NCBI GenBank assembly: GCA_023133275.1
Contig: JAGLWU010000002.1
Location: 2,440-66,439 of the forward strand
Length of the DNA: 64,000 nt
Direction: 5' to 3'
Source: Candidatus Moraniibacteriota bacterium
Lineage (GTDB): Bacteria > Patescibacteriota > Minisyncoccia > Moranbacterales > GCA-2747515
A program made the position numbers and the translations under genes. How positions within the stretch are numbered: the first letter of the stretch is position 1; each line of letters opens with the position of its first letter. The notes beneath the pieces are model-generated. The model ran no database searches. It saw nothing but the letters and a program-made list of their open reading frames with translations, and was not told the origin of the DNA. Below are positions 9,964 to 60,565 of the stretch, one piece after another.

Positions 9964-9998
9964 ATCGTAGAAACGTTGCAATGCAACGTTTCTACGAT
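9964..9998. repeat. REP hairpin 1 (GTAGAAACGTTGCA / TGCAACGTTTCTAC), directly adjacent to the RAYT gene
   Basis: Perfect palindrome beginning with GTAG. Same family as the hairpins at 35988, 37367 and elsewhere. Confidence 0.75.
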
Positions 9999-10024
9999 AT
10001 GATAATTTTTACTTTTAAATTTTA

Positions 10025-10966
10025 TTATTTTCCAATTGGAAATTTATCTGTAATTATGTTACCCGTAAAACTTCCATTGTCTGTATCATTAAAATGATTA
10101 GAATTAACAGGTGTTGTAATTAAATCAACAACTTTAGAAATTAAATGATTCTTTAATCCTTCATCTGTTTTTTCTTTTAATAAATAATTTTCTAAAATTT
10201 TTGCATTTAATTGCAAATGTCTGTATCTTGAAAGTAGATCTGCATAAATACGATAATTCTTTTGAGCAAAATAATATTGAGAATAAAGTAAACCAAAAAA
10301 TGCCAATTTAAAAAGTGCTAAAGCATATAGTTCATTTCTATCTATTTCTTTACAAAAATATAAAATAAAATATGACAAAAAAATAATAATTGAAAATATA
10401 ATAAGCAAACCAAAAATATTATTTCTTTTATCCATCCAATATTTTGCTGATTCTTCATTATTATTATCAGTACCTAATTCACTGACTCTATCTGAAATTT
10501 GTTTTTCAATAACATTACTTGTTTTACCATCGATAACATTTTCAACATTTTTTAATGCATTATTTAATTTTTCTATTTGATTATCTACTGCAATTTTATC
10601 TTCTTTTAATTTTTCTATTGAATTATTTTTTGTCTCCTCAGTTTCAAAATTTTTTAAAACAAAATCATTTCTTAAAAATAAATCTATAGTAAAATCTCTT
10701 ACTTCAATTACAGACTGTTTTAAATTATTTATATATTGAGCAGCAAAAGAATTTGGATCTTGTTCTACTTGTTTTATACCTTGAGAAACTTTCATAAACT
10801 TTTTATTCAATTCAAGTTCCTCAACCTCATCAGCAACACCAAGAAAATCAATTAAATTAAAAAATTTATTACATTTATCTATTTCTTTTGTATACTGATA
10901 TATAATTTTTCCATTAATTTTATAAGTATTTAATTTATTAATAAATTCTTCTTTTTTTATATTCAT
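10025..10966 (-). CDS. hypothetical coiled-coil / two-TM membrane protein
   Basis: 313-aa ORF with a long coiled-coil region followed by two hydrophobic helices (LLIIFSIIIFLSYFILYF; LYALALFKLAFFGLLY). No motif recognised. Confidence 0.5.
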   Translation of the reverse strand: MNIKKEEFINKLNTYKINGKIIYQYTKEIDKCNKFFNLIDFLGVADEVEELELNKKFMKVSQGIKQVEQDPNSFAAQYINNLKQSVIEVRDFTIDLFLRNDFVLKNFETEETKNNSIEKLKEDKIAVDNQIEKLNNALKNVENVIDGKTSNVIEKQISDRVSELGTDNNNEESAKYWMDKRNNIFGLLIIFSIIIFLSYFILYFCKEIDRNELYALALFKLAFFGLLYSQYYFAQKNYRIYADLLSRYRHLQLNAKILENYLLKEKTDEGLKNHLISKVVDLITTPVNSNHFNDTDNGSFTGNIITDKFPIGK

Positions 10967-11026
10967 AATATTAAAATTTTAATTTCACTAAAAAGAAACA
11001 TACCCAAAAGAACGCCTCTCACAAAA

Positions 11027-12670
11027 TTACTCACTCAATTTCTTCGCCGCCTTCACAAAACTTATAAACAAAGGATGCGGACTCAACGGAGCAGACTGAA
11101 ACTCCGGATGAAACTGCGTTGCCAAATAAAACGGATGAACACTCATTGGCAATTCCATAATCTCCATCAATTCACCATTCGGCGACTTTCCAGAAAAAAC
11201 CAATCCAGCCTCTTCCAATTTCTCAACAAACTCAGGATTAACCTCATACCGATGACGATGACGTTCAGAAACCTCAGTCTCCTTGTATGTCTTAAACGCA
11301 ATTGTTTTTTTCGCAATAACCGCAGGATAACTGCCTAATCGCATCGAACCACCGAAATCCTTATTCTCCAATTTCTTTTTTTGCTCTGGCATAATATCAA
11401 TAATTTTATTCTTCGCATTCGCTTTCATCTCCACCGTGTGAGCATCTTCAAGTTTCAAAACATTTCGAGCATATTCAACTACCGCAATTTGCATACCATA
11501 GCAAAGTCCGAAATAAGGAACTTTATTTTCTCGACAAAATTCCGCTACTTTAATTTTTCCTTCAATCCCTCGAGAGCCAAATCCACCAGGAACTACAATT
11601 CCTGCATAATTTTTAAGATCCTTAAGTTTTTTTGGATCTTTTTCATATTCACTACTATCTAACCAATCGATTTCAGGTTTACAACCATTGTAATAACAAG
11701 CATGTTTAACTGCTTCAATCACACTAATATATGCGTCTGAAAGAACGAAATCTCCGCTAGAAAAATATTTTCCAACAACTCCAATCTTCAAAGTTTTCTT
11801 CGCTCGGGTAATTTTATTAGCAAACTTAGTCCATTCAGTTAAATCTTTAGTCTTCGATTTTAAGTTTAATTCTTTAAGTAAAATATCACTCAAACCATCT
11901 TTTTCAAAATTAACAGGAACATGATAAACACTTTCTACATCAGGTGCACTAATCACATTTTCTTTTTTCACACTGCAGGAAAGAGAAATTTTTTCTTTTC
12001 GCTTTTCATCTAATTTAATATCGGAGCGAGCCACGATAATATCTGCCTGAATACCTGCTCCATTTAAAGTTCGAGAAGCATATTGAGTTGGCTTAGTTTT
12101 CATTTCACCAACCTTACTCGGCATTGGAACATAACTAACTAAAACGAAAAGTACATCTTCTGGATATTTTGTTTTCATCATCCGTGCTGCTTCGAGAAAA
12201 AGTATGTTTTGATATTCGCCAATTGTTCCTCCAATTTCGATTACTGAAACATCCGCATCAGCTTTTTCAGCAGCTGTTTCAATTCGATCGATAATTTCTA
12301 ATGGAATGTGTGGCACTACTTCAACGCATTTTCCTTTGTATTCTCCATTTCTTTCTCGTTCAATTACGGTTTGATAAACTCGTCCTGTTGTCATGTAATT
12401 TGTGCGAGTCAAAGTTGTTCCTAAGAATCTTTCGTAATTCCCCATGTCTTGATCGGTTTCATCTCCGTCTTTGAGAACGAAAACTTCTCCGTGTTCTGTT
12501 GGGTTCATTGTTCCTGCATCTACGTTAATGTAAGGATCGATTTTAATTGCGGTTACGTTAAATCCTCGGGATTGGATTAATTTTCCAACGGATGATGCGG
12601 TTATTCCTTTTCCGACTCCGCTCATCACTCCTCCAACTACGAATATAAATTTCTTATTTTTTTTCGCCAT
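11027..12670 (-). CDS. pyrG: CTP synthase PyrG
   Basis: GGVMSGVGKGITASS, the synthetase domain, and a GATase domain with GLCYGMQ. Confidence 0.95.
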   Translation of the reverse strand: MAKKNKKFIFVVGGVMSGVGKGITASSVGKLIQSRGFNVTAIKIDPYINVDAGTMNPTEHGEVFVLKDGDETDQDMGNYERFLGTTLTRTNYMTTGRVYQTVIERERNGEYKGKCVEVVPHIPLEIIDRIETAAEKADADVSVIEIGGTIGEYQNILFLEAARMMKTKYPEDVLFVLVSYVPMPSKVGEMKTKPTQYASRTLNGAGIQADIIVARSDIKLDEKRKEKISLSCSVKKENVISAPDVESVYHVPVNFEKDGLSDILLKELNLKSKTKDLTEWTKFANKITRAKKTLKIGVVGKYFSSGDFVLSDAYISVIEAVKHACYYNGCKPEIDWLDSSEYEKDPKKLKDLKNYAGIVVPGGFGSRGIEGKIKVAEFCRENKVPYFGLCYGMQIAVVEYARNVLKLEDAHTVEMKANAKNKIIDIMPEQKKKLENKDFGGSMRLGSYPAVIAKKTIAFKTYKETEVSERHRHRYEVNPEFVEKLEEAGLVFSGKSPNGELMEIMELPMSVHPFYLATQFHPEFQSAPLSPHPLFISFVKAAKKLSE

Positions 12671-13946: not shown

Positions 13947-14055
13947 AAAATCTTTAATACAAATACAAATTTCACATAATCTAATTTCTAGTATACACGA
14001 ATTATTTCTTTTTGCAAGACTTTAAAAATTAAATTGTGCTCGCCGCACGGACTTT

Positions 14056-14275
14056 TTAACCGCAAGAAACTTTTCAATCCATACAAAATTTATGCAAACC
14101 CTTAGATTTGTCATTCCGGAAAATATATTTTCTTTCCGTAGTAGGGCTCAAGCATGCCTGAGCCCTACTACTACAAGAAAACAATTTATTCAGAATCTAT
14201 ACTTTAAATTTAAAGAAAACTCAAAGTACACTTTTTTCTGAAATCCTGAATAAATTATCTTTCCACTTCGTTACA
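14056..14275. repeat. composite repeat: GTGC-hairpin module plus a TGTCATTCCGGAAAATA long hairpin element with REP hairpin 2 nested in its loop
   Basis: gtcattccggaaaatatattttctttcc ... GTAGTAGGGCTCAagcatgccTGAGCCCTACTAC ... caatttattcagaatc; then ttctgaaatcctgaataaat. Confidence 0.7.
14138..14171. repeat. REP hairpin 2 (GTAGTAGGGCTCA...TGAGCCCTACTAC)
   Basis: Perfect 13-bp arms, GTAG head, inserted into the loop of a TGTCATTCCGG hairpin element. Confidence 0.7.
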
Positions 14276-15477: not shown

Positions 15478-16882
15478 TTATGACATTATCCTCTTTCCCT
15501 TTCCTGAAATAAAATATTTAACTTCCCTGCCTACTTTTTTATTATCGACTAAATACTCTTTTTTTAAAACTTTAAAATCTTTAATTCCTGTTGATTTCGT
15601 AATCTGATTATTATCCACATAAACACTTAGGGTCATGACATTTCCAACAGACTTAGTAAGATATTCTAAGAGTTCTATTTGTCTATCATTTAAACTAAAT
15701 TTTAATTCCAATCTTTTATTTCTACTTTTCTTTTTTTTCTGTTCAATAGATATTTTTTCTATATATTTTTCAAAATCTTTTTTTGCCTGTTTTATTTTTC
15801 TTATATTATAATCGATAAAATATGTCAAGTCTTCATCATCTTGCTCTGAATATACATAAGACATTTTATATTGTTGTTGAGATTTTTTTATCACTAAAGA
15901 AATAGGATAATAGCCAAAAAAATGATAGTCATGTTTTAAAAGATATAAATAAAAAAGTAATCGAGCCATTCTTCCATTACCATCATAGAATGGATGTAAA
16001 TATCCTATCCAAAAATGGATCATTATAGCTTTAATTACTGGATGAACAAATTCATATTTTTTATCATCGTTAACAAAATCTATCAACCTTTTCAATTCTT
16101 TTCTCACAAAAGAAATATTTGGAGAAATATGTAAAATATAATTTTTTTCATTATCAACAACATTAATAATTTCATTCTTCTTTCTTAATCTACCAATAGC
16201 ATCCAAATTATCATCTTCTATAGCTCCTTTTGTTAAAATCTTATGATATTTCAATAAAGTCTCTAAGCCAATTTTTTTGTCTTTTTGACCAGCAAATTCT
16301 GATTCCAACTTCATCATAGCTTTATAATTATTCAGAATCATTATTTCATCTTTTGTTTTTGGCTCTCTTTGTTCTGTAATCATCTTTATTGCTGCATCTC
16401 GGGAAGAATGTGCCCCTTCAAGTTGAGCAGAGGCAATAGCTTCCTCAGACAAGGAATTAAGAAAAATTCTTTTTTTTGTCTTTTCATCTAAATTATCCCC
16501 AATAGAAAAATTACCACCTAAATATAAATCTGTCTCATGTAGAAACTGATCAAGTCCAGGTAAATCATTGTATGTAAAAAATTTATCACCTTCTGTTCTT
16601 ATAGGTGTTTTTTTGGATTTAATATTTCTTGCAACTTTAATCATTTTCCAAGCAAGATTAATATCAAACCCTTCTAATTTTTTATCACCATTTTTAAAAA
16701 TTTCTTCATACTTATATTTAACCTTGTCCCAAAATAAGTATCTTTTATCTTTCTCTGAAAAACCAAAATCATAAAAAATATATCCATCTTTTTCATTTTC
16801 TAAAAGTCTAATCTTTATAGTATTATTAGGATCTTTTATATCTTTTGGCTTTTCTAAAATAAATTTTGGTAAATTAGTCATA
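15478..16882 (-). CDS. Fic family protein (Fic_N plus Fic domain); start trimmed to ATG at 16882
   Basis: SAQLEGAHSS (Fic_N) and HPFYDGNGRMARLL (Fic motif). The annotated 5' extension to 16977 only translates the upstream palindromic repeat. Confidence 0.8.
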
Positions 16883-16892
16883 TTTTTTAGTA

Positions 16893-16995
16893 AAAAATCA
16901 ATAGGTGTAGTGTATACCTTTACTATACCTATAGTATACCTATTCTTGAAAAAATGCAATAGGTATAGTGTACACATTTAGTACACCTATTTTTG
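16893..16995. repeat. two tandem, roughly 50-bp, internally palindromic direct repeats (AATAGGTGTAGTGTATAC...GTATACCTATT)
   Basis: Unit 1 at 16893-16948 and unit 2 at 16949-16995, between the Fic start and the mrdA stop. Candidate operator. Confidence 0.6.
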
Positions 16996-17001
16996 AAAAA
17001 A

Positions 17002-18915
17002 CTATTTATCTTCACTCTTTTCTTCCTCACCAAAATACCATTTATAAACATCATACGCCACTGGCACAGTCGAAGAAGAAATCCTATCCGTCTGATCCTC
17101 CACCATCACCACCAAAGCAATCTCTGGATCATCATAAGGAGCATAAGACACAAACCAAGAATGTACCCTATCATTCCCCCTTTTACCAAATTGAGCAGTA
17201 CCAGTTTTACCCGCAACTTCCACAGACAAATCTTTTAACATTGTCGCAGTCCCATCACTAATTGCTTGTCTCATTCCTTCTTGAGCAACTTTAATATCTG
17301 TTTTACTCGCAATATCATTTTTTAAAATAACTGGTTCAAATTTCTGCTCATTTTCTTCCACATCAATAATATGAGAAACAATTTGCGGTTTATATAAAAT
17401 CCCTCCGTTCGCAATAACTGAAATCGAATTAAGAACCTGCAGAGGCGTGGCTGTAATATAACCTTGACCAATCGATGAATTATAAGTATCTCCTAAATAC
17501 CATTTTTCATTAATTTTATTTTTTTTCCATTCTTTATCAGGATAAACACCAGCTACTTCACCAAATAAATCAATTCCTGTTTTTTTACCATAACCAAACT
17601 GTTGCATATATTTTTTCATTTTTTCGATACCTAAACCTTGAATATCTGGATAATTTTCATGTCCACCACAGGCAGTATAAAAATAAACATCACTAGAAAC
17701 TGCAATCGCTCGTCGCATATCAGTAAATCCATGAACTTTCCAATCTCCAAAAAAAGAATTTCCTACTTTTATACCTCCCTTACTTTCAATTTCATAATCA
17801 GGTGAAATAATTTTTTCCTGTAATATTGCCAAAGCCTCCACTGGTTTCACTGTTGATCCAGGTGGATAAGCTCCACTGATAGATCGATTAAAAAGAGGAT
17901 TATTTTTATTACTGATCAAAGAATTATATTCAGACGCTTCAATTCCTCGGGCGAAAAGATTATTATCATACGACGGCAAACTAACCATCGCTAAAATTGC
18001 TCCAGTTTTTGGATTCATAGCTATAGCTGTGGCTTTTTGTGTATCAGCTCTTTCTAATTGTTTTTCTAAACTTTCTATAATAACTTTTTGCAATTCTGAA
18101 TCAATATTTAAGTAAACGTTTGAACCTTTTTTAGCTGGAATATCACTTAATTTTCGTACTAATTCCCCTCGACTATTTACCATTGACTGAGTTGATCCGT
18201 GCCCCCCTCTTAAAGATTTTTCATAATAAGTTTCAATACCTGTTTTTCCAATCCGATCAGTTAATAAATAATCCACTTCATTTTCCCATTCTTCTTTTTG
18301 AATTAAGCCTTCATAACCAATAATGTGTGAAAATAAAATTCCATCTGAATACTCTCGTAACGCTGTATTTTGAATAGCAATTCCTGACACATCCTGACCC
18401 AAACCTGAAATAATTAGAGATTCCTCATGAGAAATATTTTCTGCAAGAATGAGAGATTTTTCAGTTTCATCAGATAAATTAATTTTGACTAAAGTTTGGT
18501 CATACTCAAGAGAAGTTTTTTCACTTAATATTTTAGCAATTTCTTCTCTCTGAGAATTTTCACTAGGCAAATTTTCTGGAATAATAATAACGCTTTGATT
18601 AGGTACATTTTTAGCTAAAACTTTTCCATTTTTATCAAAAATCTCACCACGAGCAGCAATAATAGGAACTGAACGAACACTTTGACCTCCAGCAATTTCA
18701 GAGTAATAATCACCCTGAACAATAGTTAAATAAAAAACTCTCCCCGCTAAAAAAAACAAAGTCAAACAACTTATTGCCCACAAAAAATTAAACCATTTAC
18801 TATCAGATTTAAAAACTTGTTTATTTTCACTTTTGCTAAATTTATCAATAATAGGATCATCGATCTCCACCATTGAACGTTTAATTTTATCTCTCATAAA
18901 AAATTTATTTATCAA
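17002..18915 (-). CDS. mrdA: penicillin-binding protein 2 (peptidoglycan transpeptidase)
   Basis: N-terminal TM, dimerisation domain, transpeptidase motifs STVKP, SSD-like and KTGTAQ. Synteny with mreCD. Confidence 0.9.
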   Translation of the reverse strand: MINKFFMRDKIKRSMVEIDDPIIDKFSKSENKQVFKSDSKWFNFLWAISCLTLFFLAGRVFYLTIVQGDYYSEIAGGQSVRSVPIIAARGEIFDKNGKVLAKNVPNQSVIIIPENLPSENSQREEIAKILSEKTSLEYDQTLVKINLSDETEKSLILAENISHEESLIISGLGQDVSGIAIQNTALREYSDGILFSHIIGYEGLIQKEEWENEVDYLLTDRIGKTGIETYYEKSLRGGHGSTQSMVNSRGELVRKLSDIPAKKGSNVYLNIDSELQKVIIESLEKQLERADTQKATAIAMNPKTGAILAMVSLPSYDNNLFARGIEASEYNSLISNKNNPLFNRSISGAYPPGSTVKPVEALAILQEKIISPDYEIESKGGIKVGNSFFGDWKVHGFTDMRRAIAVSSDVYFYTACGGHENYPDIQGLGIEKMKKYMQQFGYGKKTGIDLFGEVAGVYPDKEWKKNKINEKWYLGDTYNSSIGQGYITATPLQVLNSISVIANGGILYKPQIVSHIIDVEENEQKFEPVILKNDIASKTDIKVAQEGMRQAISDGTATMLKDLSVEVAGKTGTAQFGKRGNDRVHSWFVSYAPYDDPEIALVVMVEDQTDRISSSTVPVAYDVYKWYFGEEEKSEDK

Positions 18916-26222: not shown

Positions 26223-26232
26223 ACGGATTCAA

Positions 26233-28672: not shown

Positions 28673-28676
28673 CAAA

Positions 28677-35892: not shown

Positions 35893-35987
35893 TCATCAGT
35901 AATCCGTAACTAAAAAAATTTTAAATGTGCTTTTTTATCATACTCTTATCATAAGACTTTTCATTTATCTTAGTGAAATTTTTCTAA

Positions 35988-36022
35988 TTCGTAAAAACGT
36001 AGCACTGCTACGTTTCTACGAA
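35988..36022. repeat. REP hairpin 3 (GTAG head on the minus strand: GTAGAAACGTAGCAG TGCTACGTTTTTAC)
   Basis: Compensatory change relative to REP1: GTTGCA/TGCAAC becomes GTAGCA/TGCTAC. Confidence 0.7.
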
Positions 36023-36025
36023 TAG

Positions 36026-36168: not shown

Positions 36169-37377
36169 ATGCAAAAATTAATCAAAAAAAATATAACAAT
36201 TGACATTTTATTATTTCTCTCAATAATATCAATTCCCCTTTATCAAATAAGAGTAAATATTTTTATCACATCTTTAAGTTTATTGAGTCTCGCAGAATTA
36301 ATTTTAATAATGTTTGGTATTTTTATTTACAGGAGAGAATTAAAAATTATTTATTTAAAAGAAAAATATTTTTTTAATTTAATTTTAAGTCTTTTGGCAA
36401 TTTTATTATTAAGCGTTTTAAAAACAAACACTATTCACGCTTACGGAATTTTTATAGAATGGTTTCTCCTTCCAATATTAGCCAGTTTTATTATTTTAAT
36501 TTACTTGCGACAAAATGAAAATAAAATTTTGTTATTAAAAAAAATGATAACTTTTATTTTTTTTGCTGTTTCTGTAGTGGCTTTATTTTATTGGTTCAAA
36601 AAAGATTTAACTTTTGATGATCGTTTAAAAACCTTTTATCTTTCTCCAAATCATTTGGCAATGTTTATTTCTTCAACAATATTTATTGTTTTTAGTTTAA
36701 TTTATGAAATTAAAAATAAGTTAATAAAAATTTTGTTAGCAATAATAATTTTAATTGGAATATTAATTTTATTTAAAACTAATTCGATTATTAATTTACT
36801 GGCAGTTTTTATGGCTATTAATATTTACTTGATTTATTTTTATCGTAAAAGTTTTATTTTAATAGTAAGTATATTTTTAACAATAAGTTTAATTTTTATT
36901 TCTGTTCAACATAAAATTCCAAATGTTGAAACTGTTTTTAAAAAAAATTCTGGCAGTTCCAGATTAGTTATTTACACCGTTTCATTAAATTTAGCAAGAA
37001 AAAATTTGTTTATTGGAAAAAATTTAGGCAATTTTCAAAATAAATATTTAGCACAACAACAATTTTACCCGCCGTATCCAGAATGGGCAGTGCCAACTCC
37101 TCATAATTTCATTTTGATGAATTTGTTTTCTGGCGGACTTATTTTTACAATATTGTTTATTTTAATAATTGTTTATTGGATTTTTAAGATGTTTATTAAA
37201 TTAGGAAAAGCAAAAAATAAACAAAAAATTATTTTTCTTTATATTTTAACAATACTTGTAATTATCATTCAAGGAATTTTTGATACGCCATATTGGAAAA
37301 ACGATTTGTCTTTCATTTTTTGGATTGTGATAATTTTAGGTTTAAGTGAAAAAAGTTTTTTAAAATTAAAAACGTAG
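36169..37377 (+). CDS. O-antigen ligase-like (Wzy_C) membrane protein; start trimmed to ATG at 36169
   Basis: PHNFILMNLFSGGLIFTILFIL Wzy_C-like motif. The 5' extension to 36091 only translates the intergenic repeat. Confidence 0.65.
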   Translation: MQKLIKKNITIDILLFLSIISIPLYQIRVNIFITSLSLLSLAELILIMFGIFIYRRELKIIYLKEKYFFNLILSLLAILLLSVLKTNTIHAYGIFIEWFLLPILASFIILIYLRQNENKILLLKKMITFIFFAVSVVALFYWFKKDLTFDDRLKTFYLSPNHLAMFISSTIFIVFSLIYEIKNKLIKILLAIIILIGILILFKTNSIINLLAVFMAINIYLIYFYRKSFILIVSIFLTISLIFISVQHKIPNVETVFKKNSGSSRLVIYTVSLNLARKNLFIGKNLGNFQNKYLAQQQFYPPYPEWAVPTPHNFILMNLFSGGLIFTILFILIIVYWIFKMFIKLGKAKNKQKIIFLYILTILVIIIQGIFDTPYWKNDLSFIFWIVIILGLSEKSFLKLKT

Positions 37378-37394
37378 CAGTACTACGTTTCTAC
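37367..37394. repeat. REP hairpin 4 (minus-strand GTAGAAACGTAGTACTGCTACGTTTTT)
   Basis: AAACGTAG/CTACGTTT stem. Confidence 0.65.
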
Positions 37395-47294: not shown

Positions 47295-47303
47295 ATTTCC
47301 TTG

Positions 47304-47375
47304 TCGGGGTACAGAGACTCGAACTCTGACTAAATCCTCCCAAAGGACTCGTGCTAGCCATTACACTATACCCCG
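47304..47375 (-). tRNA. tRNA-Pro (anticodon TGG)
   Basis: Reverse complement CGGGGTATAGTGTAATGGCTAGCACGAGTCCTTTGGGAGGATTTAGTCAGAGTTCGAGTCTCTGTACCCCGA. C1-G72 pair typical of bacterial tRNA-Pro. Anticodon loop TTTGGGA. Confidence 0.85.
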
Positions 47376-50529: not shown

Positions 50530-50790
50530 CATTATGTCATCCTGAAAAATTATTTCATTTTTTGTAAAAAAATTAAAAAATTTATTCAGGATCTCAGAAG
50601 AACATCATACTTTAAATTTTCTTAAAACTTAAGGTGTAGATACTGAATAGATTAATTTGTATTCAATCGCTACGCTCTTGAACAAATTATATCTTCCAGC
50701 ATGACATATCTGGGAGTTTGTACAGTTTTGCAGGAGTAAAAAATCTTTAATTAAATTTTCAACCCAAAAAGCCCGTGCGGCGAGTACTTT
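50530..50790. repeat. composite repeat: TGTCATCCTGAAAAATTATTT hairpin element with an inverted end (TTCCAGCATGACAT) plus an inverted GCCCGTGCGGCGAG module
   Basis: atgtcatcctgaaaaattatttcattttttgtaaaaaaattaaaaaatttattcaggatc forms an 18-bp hairpin. Confidence 0.65.
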
Positions 50791-53919: not shown

Positions 53920-53928
53920 ATTTTATTT

Positions 53929-53956
53929 GTAGGGAACGCAGATCTGCGTTCCCTAC
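53929..53956. repeat. REP hairpin 5 (GTAGGGAACGCAGA / TCTGCGTTCCCTAC, perfect 14-bp arms)
   Basis: Between the ftsH stop and tRNA-Val. Confidence 0.7.
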
Positions 53957-53961
53957 GAAAT

Positions 53962-54041: not shown

Positions 54042-54076
54042 AAAGTAGGGACTAGTCATTGGCTAGCCCCTACTTT
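54042..54076. repeat. REP hairpin 6 (AAAGTAGGGACTAG tcattgg CTAGCCCCTACTTT)
   Basis: GTAG-headed palindrome directly after tRNA-Val. Confidence 0.65.
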
Positions 54077-54090: not shown

Positions 54091-55254
54091 TTACCGATTT
54101 CCTTTCGCTCGATTGTGAGTTTTACATAACATCTGACAATTTTCAACTGAAGTAGCTCCATTTTTACTCCAAGCTGTAACATGATCAGCATCCATTTCTG
54201 TCAACTTCCAAATTTTATTCTTATTAGCGTCATGTCCAATAGCACAATGTGAACAATTTGATTTATTTTCATTTTTGGCTATTTCTGTTTGTTTTGCATA
54301 AACTAATTTTTTAGTCGCTTCATCAAAAATTCGAACATTTAGCAATTTTGTGTCAACTGAACCACCAAGAATATATTCAAAAATACCTTTACGATTTTTA
54401 ATATACGGATCAGCATAAAGTTTATGTACTTCCGCAGAAACTTTAGCTGGATCATAAGATTTTTTGTGATATTCCTCATACAATCGCCCCCATTCCAATC
54501 CACGCATTTCGCTTTCAACATCTTCAAACACGCCTGAAACCCAATCGATCACACTGTTAAAATAAGTTTTTAATTCATTGATAGTATCATCGTTACGGTG
54601 GCTACTCATATAATCTCCAATATTATTTTCACTAACCCAATCTAAAGCTTGTTCTAAAAATTCTTGTCGGTTGGCACTTCCTTTTATGTAAGCATTCCAT
54701 TTTTGAATATTAGCATTTTGACTATTACTAAATTCTTCTTTGGCGAGAGTTACAAATTGTCCGGAATAAACAGCGTTTAATAATTCTTGATTATTTAAAG
54801 GAACTCCAGCAATATTAATTGTTTTAAACCATTCTTTGATTTCACTTTCACTTCCCTCGCATTGATAAATTAAAAGCTCAGTTTCTAAAATCTTTTTTTG
54901 TTTATCTTCGGCGATTCCGCTGAAATATTGTTCCATACCGTTTTCGTCTTTGATGGCGAATTTATTGGATACGAATCGTCCGATACTAGTAATGCGTTGT
55001 TGTCCATCTAAGACTTCTAAATTGTCATCATCAATTTTATTGAAGTAAATTAATCCTAGTGGATAGCCTTTTAAAATTGATTCGATTACGGCTACATCTT
55101 TTTTACCATCAGCATAAATGTAGTTTCGTTGGTATTCTGGTTGGATAGTTAGTTTTCCTGATAGTCCAAATAATCCTTTGCCTTCGAGTTCGTTATAGAT
55201 AAATCCTTCGCAGATGTCTTTTATGGTGATGTTAGTTTTTAGGGTTGTTTTCAT
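54091..55254 (-). CDS. DUF262 (ParB-like, DGQQR) plus HNH nuclease; GmrSD-like putative type IV restriction/defence enzyme
   Basis: [16 protein letters not shown]262 signature. C-terminal HNH: CSHCA...[12 protein letters not shown]...[10 protein letters not shown]. Confidence 0.7.
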
Positions 55255-55500
55255 TATATTTGTAAAAATTGATTAAAGTTTTTCTTTTTATCTTAAACTA
55301 TGCACTAATTTTATGATATTTTGTGTATAATTGCAAACCTTTGCACAATTTTTTAGTTTTTTTGTACATAGTTTCGGGTCTTTGCACCATTGTGGTGCAG
55401 ACTTGTAATTTTATAGCATCAAATTTGCAAGTATTTTTATTTATAGTTGCAAAAAACGCTAAATTTGTAAGTATAGAAAATTATAGTCTCAAATTTGCAA

Positions 55501-55580
55501 CTATTATTTCTTATAGTCTCTAAAATTACATTATTAGAGACTATTATTCCTTATAGTCTCTAAAATTACATTATTATTTT
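55501..55580. repeat. two tandem 40-bp direct repeats (CTATTATTYCTTATAGTCTCTAAAATTACATTATTA); the second overlaps the Fic gene stop
   Basis: Read directly. A third TTATAGTCTC copy is at 55481. Confidence 0.7.
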
Positions 55581-56645
55581 TATAAGATCATCAAAAAAAT
55601 AGGTTTTATTTTTATTTTTACCGTTATCAGAAATTATTTTTTTATCCTTTAAAAATTTTAAAATTTTAAAAGTATTTGATTTGGGTATTTTAGTTTTAAC
55701 TATGAAGTCCCTTGAATCAAAAAGAGGCATTGAAAAAAGAAAGTCTAAAACTTTAAAATTATTTTTAGGTGTTGGAATATCTACTATTTTATCTTTCAAG
55801 TCGTCATGTAATTTTAAAATTTCTTGTACTTTATTGATATTTTTTATTGACTGTTTTTCTGTTGCAATAAGAAAAAACTTTATCCAGTTTTCCCAATCAT
55901 TATTTTTAGAAATATCTTGTAATCTTTCATAATATTCATCTCTGTGAGTTTCGAAGTACTCACTTAAATAAAACATTGGAGAATGTAGAACTTTTTTATA
56001 GTACAAAAATAGTGGCATTAAAATTCTTCCCGTCCTTCCATTTCCATCCCAAAAAGGATGAATAATTTCAAATTGTGCATGTACTATTGCTAATTGCACT
56101 AAAAAATCTTTTTCATCAAAATGAATATATTTTTCAAATTCTGAAAAGTATTTTTCTATTTCTTGAGGTTCAGGTGGAATATGACTTGCACCTTCAATGC
56201 CCAATCCTTGTTTACCGATAAAAACAGATCCCGTTCTAAATTTTCCAGGTTCTTTTCCGTCTCCTCTTGCTCCTTGTAAAAGTATTTTGTGAATTTTTTT
56301 GATAAGCCTTGTGGAAAGTGGTAATTCATCTAATTTTTCAATTGCCATATTCATGGCTTTTCTGTAATTGATAATTTCTTGAATGTCTTCGTATTTTTCT
56401 GTCTTCTTTTTTGGATTAGCTTCAAATTCTAAAACTTCTTCTAGCGTTGCTTGAGTTCCTTCAATTTTTGAGGATAAAACAGCTTCTTTTGTGGAAAGTG
56501 GGGAAAGTAAAATTTTGGCATTTGGAATGCTTTGTAAAAATCCATCAAATTTTGCTACGGCACGATTTGCTCCTCCAATGTGTTGAACGAAGTCTTCCCA
56601 GTTTAGTTTTTCTAATGGTAGTTTGTGTGGCTTAAATGATTTCAT
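55566..56645 (-). CDS. Fic family protein (Fic_N plus Fic plus C-terminal winged-helix-like tail)
   Basis: SKIEGTQATLEE (Fic_N), HPFWDGNGRTGRILMPLFL (Fic motif). Confidence 0.8.
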   Translation of the reverse strand: MKSFKPHKLPLEKLNWEDFVQHIGGANRAVAKFDGFLQSIPNAKILLSPLSTKEAVLSSKIEGTQATLEEVLEFEANPKKKTEKYEDIQEIINYRKAMNMAIEKLDELPLSTRLIKKIHKILLQGARGDGKEPGKFRTGSVFIGKQGLGIEGASHIPPEPQEIEKYFSEFEKYIHFDEKDFLVQLAIVHAQFEIIHPFWDGNGRTGRILMPLFLYYKKVLHSPMFYLSEYFETHRDEYYERLQDISKNNDWENWIKFFLIATEKQSIKNINKVQEILKLHDDLKDKIVDIPTPKNNFKVLDFLFSMPLFDSRDFIVKTKIPKSNTFKILKFLKDKKIISDNGKNKNKTYFFDDLIKIIM

Positions 56646-56709
56646 GTATTTTAATTATTTATTTAAAAATTTATACTTTGAAACGATTATTTTTATTATA
56701 AAGGAATTT

Positions 56710-56800
56710 TGTCATCCTGAAAAATTATTTTGTAGTTTGCCTTTGTCGGCAGACAGGCGTAGCGGAGAAATTATTTATTTGGGATCTGGGATGAACGCAA
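56710..56800. repeat. TGTCATCCTGAAAAATTATTT hairpin element with REP hairpin 8 nested in its loop
   Basis: gtcatcctgaaaaattatttt GTAG tttGCCTTTGTCGGCAGACAGGC GTAGcgg agaaattatttatttgggatc. Confidence 0.6.
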
Positions 56801-56827
56801 AACTTTAATTTTAAAATAGCTTATAAA

Positions 56828-57457
56828 CTAATTTTTATTTAAAACAATCTTTCCTCTAGTTTTTCTATTTTCATCATTTCCATAGAATCCAGTAATAACA
56901 CTTTCTTTATCTTCGTTAAAAAATAAAACGGCAAAACCATTATGTTCCACAAAACCAGTCGGAATCATTTTTGGATCTTCAGGATTATTTTTATAATGAT
57001 AACCTATCATCCAATTTTTCTTATTATTCTTATCTTGCTTCAAAAAACTAAACGTACTTTCAAATCCTGACTTATCAAAATCACCAGAAAAACTAAAACC
57101 ATTAATAATTTTTTTAATGACAATATCTTTTCCAATCACTTTAGTTTCATACTCTTCCGTATCCCAATTAAATTTATAGGAACTCCAACATTTCATTGTC
57201 CAACTTCCATCAATTTTAGGATATTCTTGAAAACCTAATTGAATAAATATTTTCTTAAAAACCCAATATTTCCATAAATACTTTTCATATAAAATATGAA
57301 GCCCATAAACTATTAAAAAAATAATACTTGATACTATACCATATTTCCAAATATTATATTTAGGATCTATCAAGATGATCTTTTCATTCAAATAATATAA
57401 TACAAAAGTTAAAATTATTATTAATATAATTGCTTTTTTTAAATTTAATTTAGCCAT
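56828..57457 (-). CDS. 2TM plus beta-rich domain protein, Cap15-like candidate CBASS effector
   Basis: Two N-terminal TM helices (AIILIIILTFVLYYL; YGIVSSIIFLIVYGLHIL), then a 150-aa beta-strand-rich soluble domain. The stop lies 12 bp before the nucleotidyltransferase gene on the same strand. Confidence 0.5.
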   Translation of the reverse strand: MAKLNLKKAIILIIILTFVLYYLNEKIILIDPKYNIWKYGIVSSIIFLIVYGLHILYEKYLWKYWVFKKIFIQLGFQEYPKIDGSWTMKCWSSYKFNWDTEEYETKVIGKDIVIKKIINGFSFSGDFDKSGFESTFSFLKQDKNNKKNWMIGYHYKNNPEDPKMIPTGFVEHNGFAVLFFNEDKESVITGFYGNDENRKTRGKIVLNKN

Positions 57458-57469
57458 CGTTGTTATTTT

Positions 57470-58387
57470 TTAATCATTACAAAAATCAGCAATCGCAATT
57501 ATAAATTTATAAGTATTCTCTAAATCCCACATTTTATCAGAAAATAGCATATCTTGACCATTAGCACATTCATAATTTTTTATATTTTCATTTTTTATAT
57601 CATTTGACCAATTTCGAATTATTTTAATAAGCATATCTTGATAGCTTCCATTAAAAATTTCAATTGGAGAATTATAAACTAAATTTTCAACAAAGTATGA
57701 CGGTGCTGAATCTTTCTCTATCTTCATATCTTGCAAAAGTTTTTTCTTCATATTTTTAAAAATACGAACAACAGATTTAAATTTTCCGTTTGTTCTGTCA
57801 TTTAAAGAACTACAATTTTTTAAATGCTCTTTTGGATAATTAATAATAACTTCTCTTGTTCCAGAATTAAATAACTTAATTCCAGGAATATAACTTTTAT
57901 TATTTAAGGAAATAAATCTTTCATATTTTTTATGTTTAAAAGCAGGCACAACATCAGCATTAACTCTATAAGTATTAGCTGGAACTTTTAAACTCTTATT
58001 ATCAAATTTAATTGAGGTGTCAAAATACATTTCAAGCACTTCATGTACATCTTTTTTAAATTTATGGAAATCATACTCAGAGCTATCATAGGAAATTTTA
58101 AAAACTTCTTTTTCTATTTCACTTAAATGATTTATATCGTAAGAAAAAGATTTCTCTAATTGAATAACAACATCAACATCGCTATCAACTTTTATATTAG
58201 TGCTATTCGCATAAGAGCCCTGTAAATATATTTCACAATCAGAAGATTCTATTGAATAATTATGGTTTTTAGAAACTACATGAGAAATATATTTATCTAA
58301 AGCCTCTCTAATTTGTTTGTGTGTATGTATATATCTTGTCGCAACAGGTACATTTGCCCAAGTGCTTAATTGTTGTTCTGTAATCAT
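57470..58387 (-). CDS. cGAS/DncV-like nucleotidyltransferase (CD-NTase/OAS-fold), candidate CBASS cyclase
   Basis: GS-x11-DVD (IYLQGSYANSTNIKVDSDVDVVI), third acidic strand NADVVPAF, OAS/cGAS-type helix SAPSYFVENLVYN. 305 aa. Confidence 0.65.
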   Translation of the reverse strand: MITEQQLSTWANVPVATRYIHTHKQIREALDKYISHVVSKNHNYSIESSDCEIYLQGSYANSTNIKVDSDVDVVIQLEKSFSYDINHLSEIEKEVFKISYDSSEYDFHKFKKDVHEVLEMYFDTSIKFDNKSLKVPANTYRVNADVVPAFKHKKYERFISLNNKSYIPGIKLFNSGTREVIINYPKEHLKNCSSLNDRTNGKFKSVVRIFKNMKKKLLQDMKIEKDSAPSYFVENLVYNSPIEIFNGSYQDMLIKIIRNWSNDIKNENIKNYECANGQDMLFSDKMWDLENTYKFIIAIADFCND

Positions 58388-58405
58388 ATTTTTAAAATTA
58401 AAAAA

Positions 58406-59458
58406 TTATTTTCCCCTATGTTTAATAAAAATTCTCTTAAAAGTTTCTTTACCATTTAAATATAAGCCTTTTCCAAAAATTCCGTTCGGATCTTGATCTA
58501 CTCCTCGATTTGATCCAATTAATTCAAACTGCTCAGGAGAATATTTATTAAGAAAACTAATCGGCACACCCATCACCCCATCAAAATCACTCGGAATATT
58601 TTTCACTAATGAAACCTCTATTGCATTATAATTATCATATTTTTCAAAGGGTTTTTTTGTTACAAACTTCATTATTTCTGATTCAGTCATTAACGATAAA
58701 GGTTGATGACGTTTACCATGATCAATATTAGTAAACCAGATTGTTCCAGCAACAAACGCATATTTATTCCCATCTTCTTCTTTGTGAAAATTTTCATAAC
58801 TATCAGGAACTTGATACCATACATTTCGTCCATCATTTTTTCCAGCACCAATCCACATTTTATTTTCCTTAATCAATGGAAAAACCTCCTTATAAGTAAT
58901 CGCATTCATATTCCCAATAATCACAAACAACTTCCCCGCCTCCACAATCCACCCCAAAAAATCCCGAAACAACGAAAACGGCGGATTCGTAATAATTACA
59001 TCAGCCTCATCCCGCAACACCTTAATCTCATCACTCCCAAAATCACCATCCCCCTTCAAATAACTCCATTCCAAATCATCAACATCCACTTTACCATCGC
59101 CCGTCTTATCATGCATCAAAGTAAAAATCTTCCCATGCTTTTCAGTCTTACTTTCATCAAACTGCGGATCATCCGTTTCAAAAAGAGTCGGTTGATAATT
59201 ATTTTTACAATTCTTACTTTCCGTTGCATAACTAGTACTAATCAATTTTTTCAAACCAAACCTCTCAAAATTTTGAGCAAAAAACTTAGTAAAATTACTC
59301 CATTCCGGATCATCACACGGCAATAAAATAGTCTTATTTCGAAAAACATCAGGATTATACTCAATATAAGCGTTAATTTCTTTTTCAATATCATGATACT
59401 GAGTATAAAACTCATCATTCTTTGCTTTCTTTGCATTTGTGAGATTGCTATTTGCCAT
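58406..59458 (-). CDS. N6-adenine DNA methyltransferase, M.EcoRI-family-like (NPPF)
   Basis: N-terminal KNDEFYTQYHDIEKEI, SAM region ILLPCDDPEWS, catalytic DVIITNPPFSLF. An 18-bp gap to the nucleotidyltransferase gene suggests co-transcription. Confidence 0.55.
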   Translation of the reverse strand: MANSNLTNAKKAKNDEFYTQYHDIEKEINAYIEYNPDVFRNKTILLPCDDPEWSNFTKFFAQNFERFGLKKLISTSYATESKNCKNNYQPTLFETDDPQFDESKTEKHGKIFTLMHDKTGDGKVDVDDLEWSYLKGDGDFGSDEIKVLRDEADVIITNPPFSLFRDFLGWIVEAGKLFVIIGNMNAITYKEVFPLIKENKMWIGAGKNDGRNVWYQVPDSYENFHKEEDGNKYAFVAGTIWFTNIDHGKRHQPLSLMTESEIMKFVTKKPFEKYDNYNAIEVSLVKNIPSDFDGVMGVPISFLNKYSPEQFELIGSNRGVDQDPNGIFGKGLYLNGKETFKRIFIKHRGK

Positions 59459-60080
59459 ATTTATGAATTACACGATTAAATTACATTTTTACTTTTAAAA
59501 ATATTCATTAATATTAAACATAAAAATACAATTTTGTCAAATAAAAACTGTTTACTATAAAAATAAATTTACATTAATCCATTATGTAATATAGCATAAA
59601 ATGTCTATTAAAGCAATAGTAAAAGTAGTAATTCCTTACGTTTATCTTCTTGAAAAAAACCATTCTTTTTCAAAATAAATTTTAAAAAAATCAGAAAAAA
59701 TATTTATTTGGTGCTATATTAGGTATGTTATATTTAAAATAATGCAAATGTGTCGTTAAAATCCGATACTAATTAATTTTTAGCATATTCCCCGCTGTGG
59801 ACATAAAATAATCTCTAAAATATATAAGTTGCAATGAAAATAAAATAAATACTTTTGTAGCAATTTTAAATCAAAAAGATGGCATAACAGTTTATTCATA
59901 TTAAGTCAATCCTTTAATTTACCAAAATCCACAATTTATAAATATCTGGATTTCATATTGATAAAAACAGTTTTTTCAAGGTTTTTGTTAATTTTGTTGA
60001 ATTAAGGTTGAAAAAGAATATTTGGATAAATATTTCATTATCTGAAAAAAAGATAATTTGATTTAAAGGAAAATAAGTTT

Positions 60081-60299
60081 ATGGGACATCTTAATCCTAA
60101 AAAATCTTTACGAGAAATTAGAATTTTACCAAAAAATATTGATTTTACGATGGGTTATGGTATTTATGGTAATGAAGTAGCTTTTATTCCATCACAAAGG
60201 GAAAATTATGATTAGGTGATTGATAGTAAAGAATTGGGTGAAACGATGAAGAATCATTTTGATTATTTCTGGGGAATTTCTAAAAAGTATATAAAATAA
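60081..60299 (+). pseudogene. small ORF interrupted by an in-frame TAG (60213-60215); likely gene remnant
   Basis: MGHLNPKKSLREIRILPKNIDFTMGYGIYGNEVAFIPSQRENYD, then TAG, then VIDSKELGETMKNHFDYFWGISKKYIK in the same frame. Confidence 0.2.
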
Positions 60300-60327
60300 T
60301 CTATTTGTTGGGTTTTTGTTAAATTCT

Positions 60328-60565
60328 TTGTTCCACGTGGAACAATTGTGATAAAAAAAGGTATAATTGTTCCACGTGGAACATTAAAATATATTTAAAA
60401 CAAAAAATTGTTCCACGTGGAACAATTTTTGGTATTTATTAGTTTTATTTGAATTAGTGAATAGTTTTCGTAGCAAACGGTTTGAAACCGTTCACCACAA
60501 TAATTATAAGAAATTTATTAATTTTGTTGTCTCTTTTTTTATATATTTTGTTCCACGTGGAACAA
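60328..60565. promoter_or_regulatory. array of four 18-bp palindromes TTGTTCCACGTGGAACAA (three perfect, one 17/18), candidate operator/iteron sites
   Basis: Copies at 60328-60345, 60367-60383, 60408-60425 and 60548-60565. Spacings 39, 41 and 140 bp. Confidence 0.55.
60470..60498. repeat. REP-like hairpin 7 (GTAGCAAACGGTTT g AAACCGTTcacc), degenerate
   Basis: GTAG head and an AAACGGTTT/AAACCGTTT stem, sitting between palindrome copies 3 and 4. Confidence 0.4.

Follow-up and report, generated by a model that had tools for sequence, protein, structure and literature searches.

Probable double-foot REP hairpins and a subclass 2.4 RAYT gene in a Patescibacteria genome close to Ca. Moraniibacteriota

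The GTAG hairpins dispersed over the 64-kb window (the whole stretch of DNA analysed) were very probably 'double-foot' REPs, with GTAG at the 5' end and CTAC at the 3' end, of a REPtron around a RAYT/TnpAREP of subclass 2.4 (Bertels Group 4) in a Patescibacteria genome close to Ca. Moraniibacteriota. Their membership in one family and their physical link to the RAYT gene were demonstrated: the copy at 9964-9998 followed the stop of gene 10025-10966 by 29 nt and preceded the RAYT start codon by 20 nt, another copy lay inside the RAYT gene, and the same upstream REP was kept in the ortholog of a related genome. The original prediction that these hairpins were REPs tied to a RAYT was thus borne out.

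Strict GTAG...CTAC hairpins, defined by at least 9 bp and at most one mismatch, occurred at five places in the window versus a mean of 0.023 and a maximum of 1 in 300 dinucleotide-based shuffles, and the reversed arrangement CTAC...GTAG was not observed in the window. GTAG was the only high-count foot of the window not made purely of A/T. Seven to eight copies were counted within the 64 kb (Table 1), with cores of 28-35 nt, stems of 12-16 bp and loops of 3-4 nt, sizes falling within the 20-40 bp described for REP palindromes (Di Nocera 2013). GTAG paired with CTAC at the opposite end, unlike the unpaired tag carried at one end by the GTAG-tagged REPs of Di Nocera 2013; such pairing corresponds to the 'double-foot' variant of PMC6006769. 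The covariance model built for the family recovered the hairpins at 35991 and 14141, neither of which was in its training set, and the copies with a GTAGGG foot scored E values of 1e-5 to 7e-4. When two stem positions were left unspecified in a pattern search, complementary pairs of five different types were present in 16 of the 17 matches; one set of covariation counts is partly circular, its sequences having been picked as palindromes.

Table 1. Features of the REP system in the window (z, folding relative to shuffles; bits and E, match to the family covariance model)
Feature	Position	Strand	Structure, sequence or context	z	Model match
RAYT/TnpAREP gene (subclass 2.4 type)	9344..9946	-	200 codons; in-frame TAG at 9860-9862 (codon 29)		
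REP inside RAYT reading frame	9612..9640		GTAGAGATAAGGCACTGCCTTGTCTCTAC; between HuH and Tyr motifs; encodes VETRQCLIST	-6.3	43.1 bits (sequence in training set)
REP type A	9964..9998		16 bp, perfect; core 9967-9995 = GTAGAAACGTTGCA-AT-GCAACGTTTCTAC	-7.9	
TGTC-tagged hairpin element hosting REP 14138	14110..14197	+	window has about 14 elements of this kind		
REP with GTAGGG foot	14138..14171		13 bp	-5.8	25.4 bits, E 7e-4 (outside training set)
REP type A variant (GTAGCA/TGCTAC)	35987..36023		16 bp, 1 mismatch	-7.7	33.9 bits, E 6e-6 (outside training set)
Decayed copy of type A variant (35988 type)	37366..37394		8 bp left	-4.7	16.9 bits, E 0.07
REP with GTAGGG foot	53926..53959		9 nt after ftsH stop, 5 nt before tRNA-Val	-8.7	
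REP with GTAGGG foot	54042..54076		1 mismatch; 8 nt after tRNA-Val	-4.5	
Possible decayed REP	55534..55563		TTAGAGACTAT..ATAGTCTCTAA, also written TTAGAGAC...GTCTCTAA	-5.2	15.4 bits, E 0.16

Eight GTAG-headed hairpins had been listed originally, among which those at 9964, 14138, 35988, 53929 and 54042 were retained, together with that at 37367 as a decayed copy. The hairpin at 56732 folded no better than shuffles (z -0.85; 39 of 200 shuffles equally good), and positions 56732..56767 were assigned instead to the variable centre of a TGTC-tagged element, 56711-56786. The hairpin at 60470..60498, listed as a degenerate family member, had a stem of 7 bp with GTAG unpaired (z -2.2) and was rejected by folding and by the covariance model, which matched neither 56732 nor 60470 even at E <= 10. 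Two copies were absent from that list, namely the one in the RAYT gene and the possible decayed one at 55534-55563. GTAG, stated to head every hairpin, did so in most copies; the 5' foot of the 35988 copy (35987-36023) read GTAA on the + strand and GTAG on the - strand only, and that of 37367 read TAAA. The stem-preserving paired change that distinguishes GTTGCA/TGCAAC (9964) from GTAGCA/TGCTAC (35988 and 37367) was real, and is one event common to two neighbouring copies.

Every extragenic copy was positioned 3' of a gene, between co-directional or convergent genes, a placement that has been reported for REPs (PMC3733652). The decayed copy at 37366-37394 supplied the TAG stop codon of gene 36169-37377. 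Inverted REP doublets (REPINs) were not found, each copy in the window being a single hairpin; according to a suggestion in PMC6006769, a dimer might have collapsed to give the double foot.

The window RAYT matched Y1_Tnp of Pfam (E 1.9e-8; 34.9 bits, above the cut-off of 23), and its best NCBIfam match was REP_Tyr_transpos (NF047646), at 66.4 bits under the cut-off of 80; transpos_IS200 of NCBIfam gave 21.7 bits, under the cut-off of 55. The predicted protein possessed the motifs NHIH (in MPNHIHGII), WQ and YIIYNF, the first of which conforms to NH[IFV]H, the HuH motif defined for subclass 2.4 (PMC6006769, Table 1), with both His residues invariant in a 24-sequence alignment. Its single PDB relative was 4ER8, a TnpAREP, at very low protein similarity (E 0.07). 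The window segment WQPRFYDRIIRN aligned with the GTAG-contact segment WQPRFWEHAIRN of 4ER8, and FAWQPRFYDRIIRN with NIWQPRFWEHAIRN, such that WQ and the GTAG-contact positions, taken from the E. coli enzyme (W94, Q95, E100/D, H101/R and R104), were represented; D and R substitutions at contact residues have been reported for related subclasses (PMC6006769). No tnpB was found beside the gene, which was single-copy within the 64-kb window. A REP was present on one side only of the gene, with none downstream within the window.

As judged from its sequence, the window RAYT is probably a pseudogene. In the alignment, codon 29 was TAG where the syntenic ortholog has TGG (Trp), and the same TAG was present in the ENA assembly; the interrupted reading frame bears on activity, not on homology. 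The Tyr motif read YIIYNF, versus YIFQNP in the ortholog and YIxxNP in the family consensus. Compared with the subclass signature YIxNNP (class 2 Y...NP), Tyr, Ile and Asn were kept and Pro was replaced by Phe, a change compatible with decay of this copy. Because of the nonsense codon and the damaged Tyr motif the gene is most likely inactive, and the earlier description of the system as active-looking could not be upheld. Present-day mobility is therefore doubtful, and the copies would be relics, unless a RAYT located elsewhere in the genome moves them.

The closest relative was a Ca. Moraniibacteriota genome, designated L003, in which the gene order L9, CTP synthase, hypothetical gene, RAYT, DnaG and sigma-70 was kept. 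The same REP as in the window was located about 12-20 nt upstream of the start of its RAYT, with a half copy downstream, and the hairpin inside the gene differed from that of the window by four paired changes. L003 also had a second RAYT, associated with a REP type of its own that lay 12 nt before the start codon and was present twice within the gene. REP 14138 was missing from the matching intergenic region of L003, and dispersed copies turn over between these two related genomes. No presence/absence differences were seen at the strain level, other assemblies of the organism being 100% identical over the compared stretches.

The link between gene and hairpin extended to 80 related loci from many phyla, where GT[AG]G-foot hairpins, 88 of the 467 hairpins in all sequences scanned, had densities of 0.985/kb inside the gene, 0.308/kb within 500 bp and 0.006/kb farther away, i.e. 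about 160 and 50 times the distant density inside the gene and within 500 bp, respectively. A hairpin in the same position as that at 9612-9640 was present in 46-54 of the 80 related genes; it occurred in two reading phases and encoded several distinct peptides, indicating that the DNA and not the peptide is conserved. Dispersed copies were about 8 times denser in the window than in the 10-kb flanks of the 80 other loci. Homologues of the window RAYT were found in several Patescibacteria genomes.

Among known systems, the subclass 2.4 REPtrons (Quentin et al. 2018, PMC6006769), equivalent to RAYT Group 4 (Bertels et al. 2017, PMC5581495), were nearest. Shared features included NH[IFV]H, WQ, a length of about 194-200 residues, an insert of variable sequence separating the HuH motif from the Tyr motif, double-foot REPs (5' GT[AG]G, 3' C[TC]AC), an in-frame REP inside the gene, a GT[AG]G REP within 1 kb of the gene (9964-9998 in the window; both sides in L003), few copies of the gene and a non-proteobacterial host, whereas the nonsense codon, NF in place of NP and a REP on one flank only set the window gene apart. 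The E. coli REP/BIME and TnpAREP system (subclass 2.2, 4ER8; PMC3479197, PMC8266576) has in common with the window a 5' GTAG foot, a GC-rich hairpin, a single-copy HuH/Tyr enzyme with the conserved segment WQPRF..[DE][RH]..R, an intergenic location after gene 3' ends, and mosaics with other repeat motifs. However, GTAG is unpaired and the stem bulged in E. coli, whereas the window copies have perfect stems in which GTAG is paired to CTAC, so that the same hairpin is obtained from both strands. IS200/IS605 insertion sequences likewise have a transposase of the Y1 HuH fold, which recognises single-strand hairpins by means of a guide tetranucleotide on the 5' side; the window RAYT, however, lacked a Y...Q motif and an accompanying tnpB, and did not occur as several identical copies.

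Some of the REPs were nested in a second repeat family. Its elements had a tag followed by ATTCYGRA...TYCRGAAT, with T preceding GTCA[TC] in nine clear copies. REP 14138 occupied the exact centre of element 14110-14197, and REP 35988 abutted the left arm of element 35986-36052 read on the - strand; nesting atop TGTC-tagged elements recurred in the relative. Both empty and filled elements were present within the same 64 kb. No dedicated transposase is known for CGTC/TGTC-tagged REPs or for the TGTC elements of the window. The proposed nesting in the loops of host hairpins was upheld for 14138 and also held for 35988, which had not originally been listed as nested; 56732, although central, was not a credible REP. 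That REPs might insert preferentially into hairpin loops is a reasonable conjecture. The host elements most closely matched the CGTC/TGTC-tagged REPs (Di Nocera et al. 2013), with a terminal TGTC and an 8-bp stem (8-9 bp in those families) opening A-T, T-A; unlike the published families, with loops of 4-5 nt, their 'loop' was an AT-rich inner hairpin of 20-50 nt with a variable centre. REPs within other palindromes have been on record since 2013 (PMC3733652), where, as here, a GTAG REP is central in a longer unrelated palindrome (GTAG-15 of Anabaena variabilis, GTAG-23 of Thermomicrobium roseum); in the window, unlike these cases, the host palindrome also belongs to a repeat family, TGTC-tagged and with about 14 copies. 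Other palindromes of the window, e.g. TGTTCCACGTGGAACA, present four times, resembled operator sites.

That the hairpins are intrinsic terminators or stabilisers of mRNA 3' ends, sharing GTAG by chance and having no connection with the RAYT, is very unlikely. The extragenic copies did all lie 3' of a gene, mRNA stability in E. coli is known to be influenced by REPs (background in PMC3733652), and copy 54042-54076, the only one with a T-rich tail (on the - strand), scored as terminator-like and had a GC stem plus T run. Six of seven copies nevertheless lacked a T run, those at 9964, 14138 and 53926 being scanned and left unscored and the flanks of 35987 and 37366 being judged by eye, and the evident terminators of the window had A/T-tract flanks and no GTAG. 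One copy was within coding sequence, and the same hairpin type clustered in and beside RAYT genes at 80 loci in many phyla. This statistical association with RAYT genes speaks against termination or stabilisation as the sole explanation; the hairpins may have a secondary role at the RNA level. Palindromic binding sites of a dimeric DNA-binding regulator are less probable still, and hardly credible: perfect palindromes in intergenic DNA, in a window whose other palindromes look operator-like, would suit such sites, but 12-16 bp stems whose foot is conserved while the upper part varies are unlike operators, and the copies were at gene 3' ends rather than promoters and were RAYT-linked across phyla.

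With the hairpins taken as REPs of a RAYT, there is an appreciable chance, somewhat below even, that those with a GTAGGG foot (14138, 53929 and 54042) belong to a second RAYT elsewhere or are older orphans, rather than belonging to the window RAYT. The three had little in common beyond the foot and basal pairs, their upper stems differing from type A and from each other; the two RAYTs of L003 are each paired with a REP type of their own, and several REP families with matching REPtrons per genome have been documented (PMC3733652). On the other side, no second RAYT was seen within 64 kb, GTAGGGAC-type feet occurred as internal hairpins in other subclass 2.4 genes, and the E values of the three copies with the family model imply that one enzyme might accept GTAGGG hairpins. 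It is unlikely that the mobile unit was a composite in which the TGTC left arm GTCAYTYCGGAAAATATATTTTCTT and the REP spread as a block, the REP not inserting into loops by itself. On four occasions (14110, 35986 on the - strand, L077:1464, and downstream of the L003 RAYT) this arm and a REP were 2-8 nt apart, the right arm being missing or poor in two of them, and the 'empty' copy at 26271 has in its middle AGTGCAACG, which may be what is left of a REP. The four REPs, however, differed in sequence type (GTAGGGC, GTAGAAACGTAGCA, GTAGAAACGTCGAT and AAACGTTGCA), which argues for separate events; moreover, most TGTC-tagged elements had no REP and most REPs did not adjoin such an element.

For double-foot REPs of a subclass 2.4 REPtron, a route of spread can be proposed by analogy with studied systems. 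The folded hairpin in single-stranded DNA would serve as the binding site of the HuH/Tyr nuclease, with GTAG as the enzyme's guide; cleavage at a CT dinucleotide, which the 3' CTAC of a double-foot REP would provide, would be followed by strand transfer, and this would seed new REP copies in intergenic DNA.

The system type has been known since 2018, and what is new is only its host, a Patescibacteria bacterium with a small genome. An active-looking system in a streamlined genome of this type was originally held to be unusual. It is not very unusual: subclass 2.4/Group 4 has been described as common in Cyanobacteria, Bacteroidetes, Chlorobia and scattered phyla (PMC6006769, PMC5581495). Patescibacteria and Ca. 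Moraniibacteriota are not named as hosts in these two papers, and REPtrons are not known to have been described in Patescibacteria. Rather doubtful at present is a more specific proposal: in this lineage, GTAG REPs would insert specifically atop TGTC-tagged elements beside GTCAYTYCGGAAAATATATTTTCTT, and both families, with at least two other short motifs, would build BIME-like mosaics that occupy a large share of a streamlined genome's intergenic DNA. If true, the nested copies would record, as natural footprints, where RAYT activity had inserted REPs into hairpin loops extruded as single strands.

The original prediction listed eight hairpins headed by GTAG, and the observation of such a family in the window was partly confirmed. 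Seven hairpins folded far better as single-stranded DNA than their shuffles (z -4.5 to -8.7), including one decayed copy and one copy absent from that list. A covariance model of the REP family, scanned over the window with filters off, recovered from outside its training set the copies at 35991-36019 (E 6e-6), 14141-14168 (E 7e-4) and 37366-37394 (E 0.07), and flagged 55534-55563 as a possible decayed REP. Strict GTAG...CTAC hairpins occurred at 5 places in the window versus 0.023 expected from shuffles, and the reversed CTAC...GTAG arrangement at none. The listed hairpins at 9964, 14138, 35988, 53929 and 54042, as well as the decayed one at 37367, were upheld by folding together with the family model or the strict pattern, whereas those at 56732 (z -0.85, no better than shuffles) and 60470 (7-bp stem, GTAG unpaired, z -2.2) were not, neither giving a match to the model in the whole window even at E <= 10. 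The copy at 35988 reads GTAA on the plus strand, so that its GTAG foot is present solely on the minus strand.

Hairpins, repeats and selected genes of the window
Feature	Position (strand)	Remark
REP	9964-9998	type A; folds well
REP	14138-14171	GTAGGG foot; folds well
REP	35987-36023	folds well
REP	53926-53959	GTAGGG foot; folds well
REP	54042-54076	GTAGGG foot; folds well
REP	37366-37394	decayed; folds well
REP	9612-9640	absent from original prediction; folds well
TGTC-tagged element	8147-8198	
TGTC-tagged element	14110-14197	
TGTC-tagged element	26271-26337	
TGTC-tagged element	28414-28465	
TGTC-tagged element	28540-28593	
TGTC-tagged element	28639-28673 (-)	
TGTC-tagged element	32857-32910	
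TGTC-tagged element	32967-33019 (-)	
TGTC-tagged element	35986-36052 (-)	
TGTC-tagged element	50536-50593	
TGTC-tagged element	50639-50705 (-)	
TGTC-tagged element	56711-56786	
TGTC-tagged element	43175-43227	GC-richer variant
TGTC-tagged element	43234-43278 (-)	GC-richer variant
AACAnnGGGTCATGACCCnnTGTT palindrome	8110-8121	
AACAnnGGGTCATGACCCnnTGTT palindrome	28371-28394	
AACAnnGGGTCATGACCCnnTGTT palindrome	36132-36155	
CGTGCGGCGAGCAC(AA) hairpin	8077-8092 (-)	
CGTGCGGCGAGCAC(AA) hairpin	14034-14049 (-)	
CGTGCGGCGAGCAC(AA) hairpin	26231-26246 (-)	
CGTGCGGCGAGCAC(AA) hairpin	50774-50789 (+)	
TGTTCCACGTGGAACA palindrome	60329-60344	perfect copy
TGTTCCACGTGGAACA palindrome	60368-60383	perfect copy
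TGTTCCACGTGGAACA palindrome	60409-60424	perfect copy
TGTTCCACGTGGAACA palindrome	60549-60564	perfect copy
Inverted repeat	16900-16991	38 nt, imperfect
Hairpin	47254-47303	21-22 bp
RhuM/Fic-domain gene	8291-9277	between RAYT and dnaG
Defence island	54091-59458	
GmrSD-like restriction enzyme	54091-55254	HNH domain
Fic protein	55566-56645	
Cap15-like cyclic-dinucleotide receptor	56828-57457	
Nucleotidyltransferase	57470-58387	weak SMODS similarity
EcoRI-type adenine methyltransferase	58406-59458	

The ORF at 9344-9754 (-) was the tail of a longer gene which, read from the ATG at 9946, spanned 200 codons, just one of them (codon 29) an in-frame TAG; its product was a HuH protein of the Y1 type (Pfam Y1_Tnp, E 1.9e-8). 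The best NCBIfam match of this RAYT was REP_Tyr_transpos, which at 66 bits fell short of the cut-off of 80, with IS200 far lower, and 3,494 homologs were found at E <= 1e-5, part of them annotated 'REP element-mobilizing transposase RayT'. The protein resembled TnpAREP subclass 2.4 (Quentin et al. 2018), that is Group 4 of Bertels et al. 2017, in its NHIH, WQ and Tyr motifs, its length and the variable insert between HuH and Tyr. Members of this subclass are marked by 'double-foot' REPs (5' GT[AG]G, 3' C[TC]AC) and by REPs lying in frame inside the gene (PMC6006769; PMC5581495), both of which were present in the window. The only relative with a solved structure, E. coli TnpAREP (4ER8), aligned over the HuH motif and the GTAG-contacting segment.

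Hairpins and RAYT genes were compared in 80 loci encoding RAYT relatives, fetched from Bacteroidota, Cyanobacteria, Chlorobia, Ignavibacteria, Gammaproteobacteria and six Patescibacteria contigs. Of the 467 hairpins in an unbiased census, which took in these loci together with the window and another two loci duplicating sequence already included, 88 carried GT[AG]G within 7 nt of the start of the 5' arm. The enrichment near the RAYT gene that the original prediction proposed to look for was evident in the 80 loci, the density of GT[AG]G-foot hairpins being 0.985 per kb inside the gene, 0.308 per kb within 500 bp and 0.006 per kb in the 1.12 Mb lying farther out. Under identical criteria, about 62 kb of the window contained three dispersed copies, which is roughly 8 times the density farther out. 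The hairpin internal to the gene was near-identical across phyla (GTAGAGACAAGGCA..TGCCTTGTCTCTAC) and was read in two codon phases, giving peptides that included VETRQCLVST, VETRHALSLQ and RDKALPCLY, which argues that it is conserved as DNA or RNA and not as protein. A positional profile of 50 distinct hairpins gave the consensus GTAG-RRAC-RNNGC(A), with stems of 12-13 bp, loops of 3-4 nt and positions 10-11 least conserved. The REP/RAYT reading of the hairpins is supported. In a Ca. Parcubacteria contig (L078), three tandem copies of GTAGAGACGTTGCAATGCAACGTCTCTAC at 87-nt spacing (18522-18724), following a partial second RAYT, show local tandem amplification of a double-foot REP.

The paired stem changes noted originally (GTTGCA/TGCAAC versus GTAGCA/TGCTAC) were real but represented one event only, because the copies at 35988 and 37367, 1.4 kb apart, share the variant and count once. 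A metagenome search for the type A REP, with the pattern GTAGAAACG-NN-GC...GC-NN-CGTTTCTAC and NN left free, gave matches solely in unrelated contigs (15 contigs, 36-64% G+C); NN was complementary in 16 of 17 matches, with five kinds of pairs (TT/AA, AG/CT, TA/TA, AC/GT and GC/GC), and in three of the 15 contigs the REP lay beside or inside a RAYT gene. Pair counts on 38 distinct hairpins agreed with this test, but were circular and given little weight because the sequences had been selected as palindromes.

The window, with 29.5% G+C and 15% intergenic DNA, had a gene content typical of Patescibacteria (ribosomal proteins, EF-G, FtsH, DnaG, sigma-70, MreC/D, PBP2, VirB4-like proteins, and several genes of the Fic and defence types); in the defence island, the Cap15-like and nucleotidyltransferase genes adjoin as a CBASS-like pair. 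The nearest genome found was Ca. Moraniibacteriota bacterium HOU_bin.0114 (GCA_942490825.1), which shared genes at 82-91% DNA identity and the identical order L9, CTP synthase, hypothetical gene, RAYT, DnaG and sigma-70. Contigs matching the exact RAYT fragment or the FtsH proteins were all 100% identical to the window, and provided no filled/empty REP site pair within the species.

At L003, the locus of the related genome with the syntenic RAYT, the same REP (GTAGAAACGTTGCAtTGCAACGTTTCTAC) lay a short way before the RAYT start codon and a half copy shortly after the gene, and the internal hairpin GTAGAGACGTTGCAGTGCAACGTCTCTAC differed from ACAAGGCA/TGCCTTAT of the window by four changes per arm with pairing kept. 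Identity was ~96% over the upstream REP and the initial ~280 nt of the gene (window 9344-10009 versus L003 6485-7136), whereas the remainder of the gene was much more diverged and neighbouring genes were 82-91% identical; this may be due to gene conversion, to recent exchange or to a 5' half under strong constraint. Between RAYT and dnaG, the related genome lacked the RhuM/Fic-domain gene and had a half REP and TGTC-type elements in its place. The L003 intergenic region corresponding to that of REP 14138 lacked this REP, though its promoter-proximal 130 nt aligned well. A second RAYT of the related genome was intact, with its own REP type (GTAGAAACGCGAT...) 12 nt upstream of the start codon and two copies of that type inside the gene; this type would not explain the GTAGGG copies of the window.

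The 'active-looking' system of the original prediction was not borne out, since the window RAYT is broken by its TAG, which replaces TGG (Trp) of L003 through one G-to-A change, and its Tyr motif reads YIIYNF versus YIFQNP. The stop codon was also present in an ENA assembly of the same organism. Recoding of TAG was rejected because TAG serves as the stop of gene 36169-37377 and codon 29 of the RAYT is TGG in the ortholog.

The 'TGTCATYCNGAAAAATA' elements did form a family, with about 14 copies in the 64 kb, each consisting of a TGTC tag, an 8-bp stem ATTCYGRA/TYCRGAAT and, further in, an AT-rich hairpin whose centre varied; they also occurred in the related genome (L003 and another locus, L077), and no associated gene was identified. 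In tag and stem base they agree with the CGTC/TGTC-tagged REPs (Di Nocera et al. 2013), but their centre is much longer. Of two REPs originally placed in the loops of such elements, 14138 was exactly central, whereas 56732, though central, was not a credible REP. In addition, REP 35988 abutted the inner end of a TGTC-type arm with a poor partner arm, and in the related genome one REP was central in L077:1464-1544 and another, downstream of the L003 RAYT, abutted a TGTC-type arm. No two of these four REPs share a sequence type, which suggests that they arose in separate events. Since the intergenic DNA totals 9.2 kb and element tops make up ~1.5% of it, placement of at least two of six REPs on them by chance is unlikely (~0.003 by our own estimate). 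GTAG REPs inside other palindromes were reported in 2013 (PMC3733652). Nesting may stem from REPs inserted into extruded loops or from a composite unit that spreads.

Besides GTAG REPs and TGTC-tagged elements, the repeat families of the window included GGGTCATGACCC palindromes. Two copies of the third palindrome family, AACAnnGGGTCATGACCCnnTGTT, differed by paired changes (AG/CT versus GT/AC), and every copy adjoined a TGTC-tagged element, the motifs together forming BIME-like mosaics. The small GC hairpin motif CGTGCGGCGAGCAC(AA) lay upstream of dnaG, rplI, rpsL and tilS, ~50-135 nt from the start codons on the coding strand; the related genome retains it before rplI and dnaG, and the motif may be either linked to promoters or an element of 5' leaders. 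The TGTTCCACGTGGAACA copies, in a 1.1-kb intergenic region (59459-60590) downstream of a small membrane-protein gene (60591-61073, -) beyond which lies an anaerobic ribonucleotide reductase gene (61323-63392), look like operator sites for a dimeric regulator. The inverted repeat AATAGGTGTAGTGTATACC... / ...GGTATAGTGTACAC... lies partly in the 5' end of a Fic gene (15478-16977) and partly in the short stretch that precedes the stop of the PBP2 gene (17002-18915).

That the hairpins are tRNA-linked terminators, one of the refuting possibilities named originally, would agree with the tRNA-Val bracketed by two REP copies and with the T-rich tail of REP 54042 (- strand). However, the other copies were unrelated to tRNAs, no other copy had such a tail, and the evident terminators of the window had A/T-tract flanks and no GTAG; terminators were therefore rejected as the main explanation. 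At gathering thresholds, Rfam found only four tRNAs in the whole window and no known RNA family overlapping the hairpins. The genes on either side of each extragenic REP copy were co-directional or convergent, as is reported for REPs (PMC3733652). A separate hairpin (CAAGGAAACAAAAAAGTTCCGC / GCGGAACTTTTTTATTTCCTTG), directly abutting tRNA-Pro (47303-47375, -), is probably a bidirectional terminator.

Studied TnpAREP enzymes bind folded single-stranded REP, need GTAG to cleave and cut at CT or CA (PMC8266576). By analogy, a RAYT of the window type would bind folded REP, need GTAG and cut at CT in the same way; the 3' CTAC of a double-foot REP would supply the CT, and both DNA strands would give the same substrate. 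With the RAYT broken, the REP copies of the window, perfect and decayed, are either relics or served by a RAYT elsewhere.

Such a system was originally supposed to be unusual in a genome of this type, yet its kind was described in 2018 and homologs include several from Ca. Falkowbacteria and Ca. Gracilibacteria. What is new is the host phylum, Patescibacteria, which the main text of Quentin et al. does not name (PMC6006769); no paper on REPs or RAYTs of this phylum came up in full-text literature searches. A known system is thereby extended to genomes in which intergenic DNA is scarce; the window nevertheless holds three repeat families and a recurrent GC hairpin motif before four genes. The spread of REPs has been described as poorly understood (PMC8266576), and their recurring placement atop another hairpin element is a modest, testable clue to REP target choice. 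The freshly broken RAYT, its perfect and decayed REPs and the intact ortholog could provide a natural comparison of REP fate after enzyme loss.
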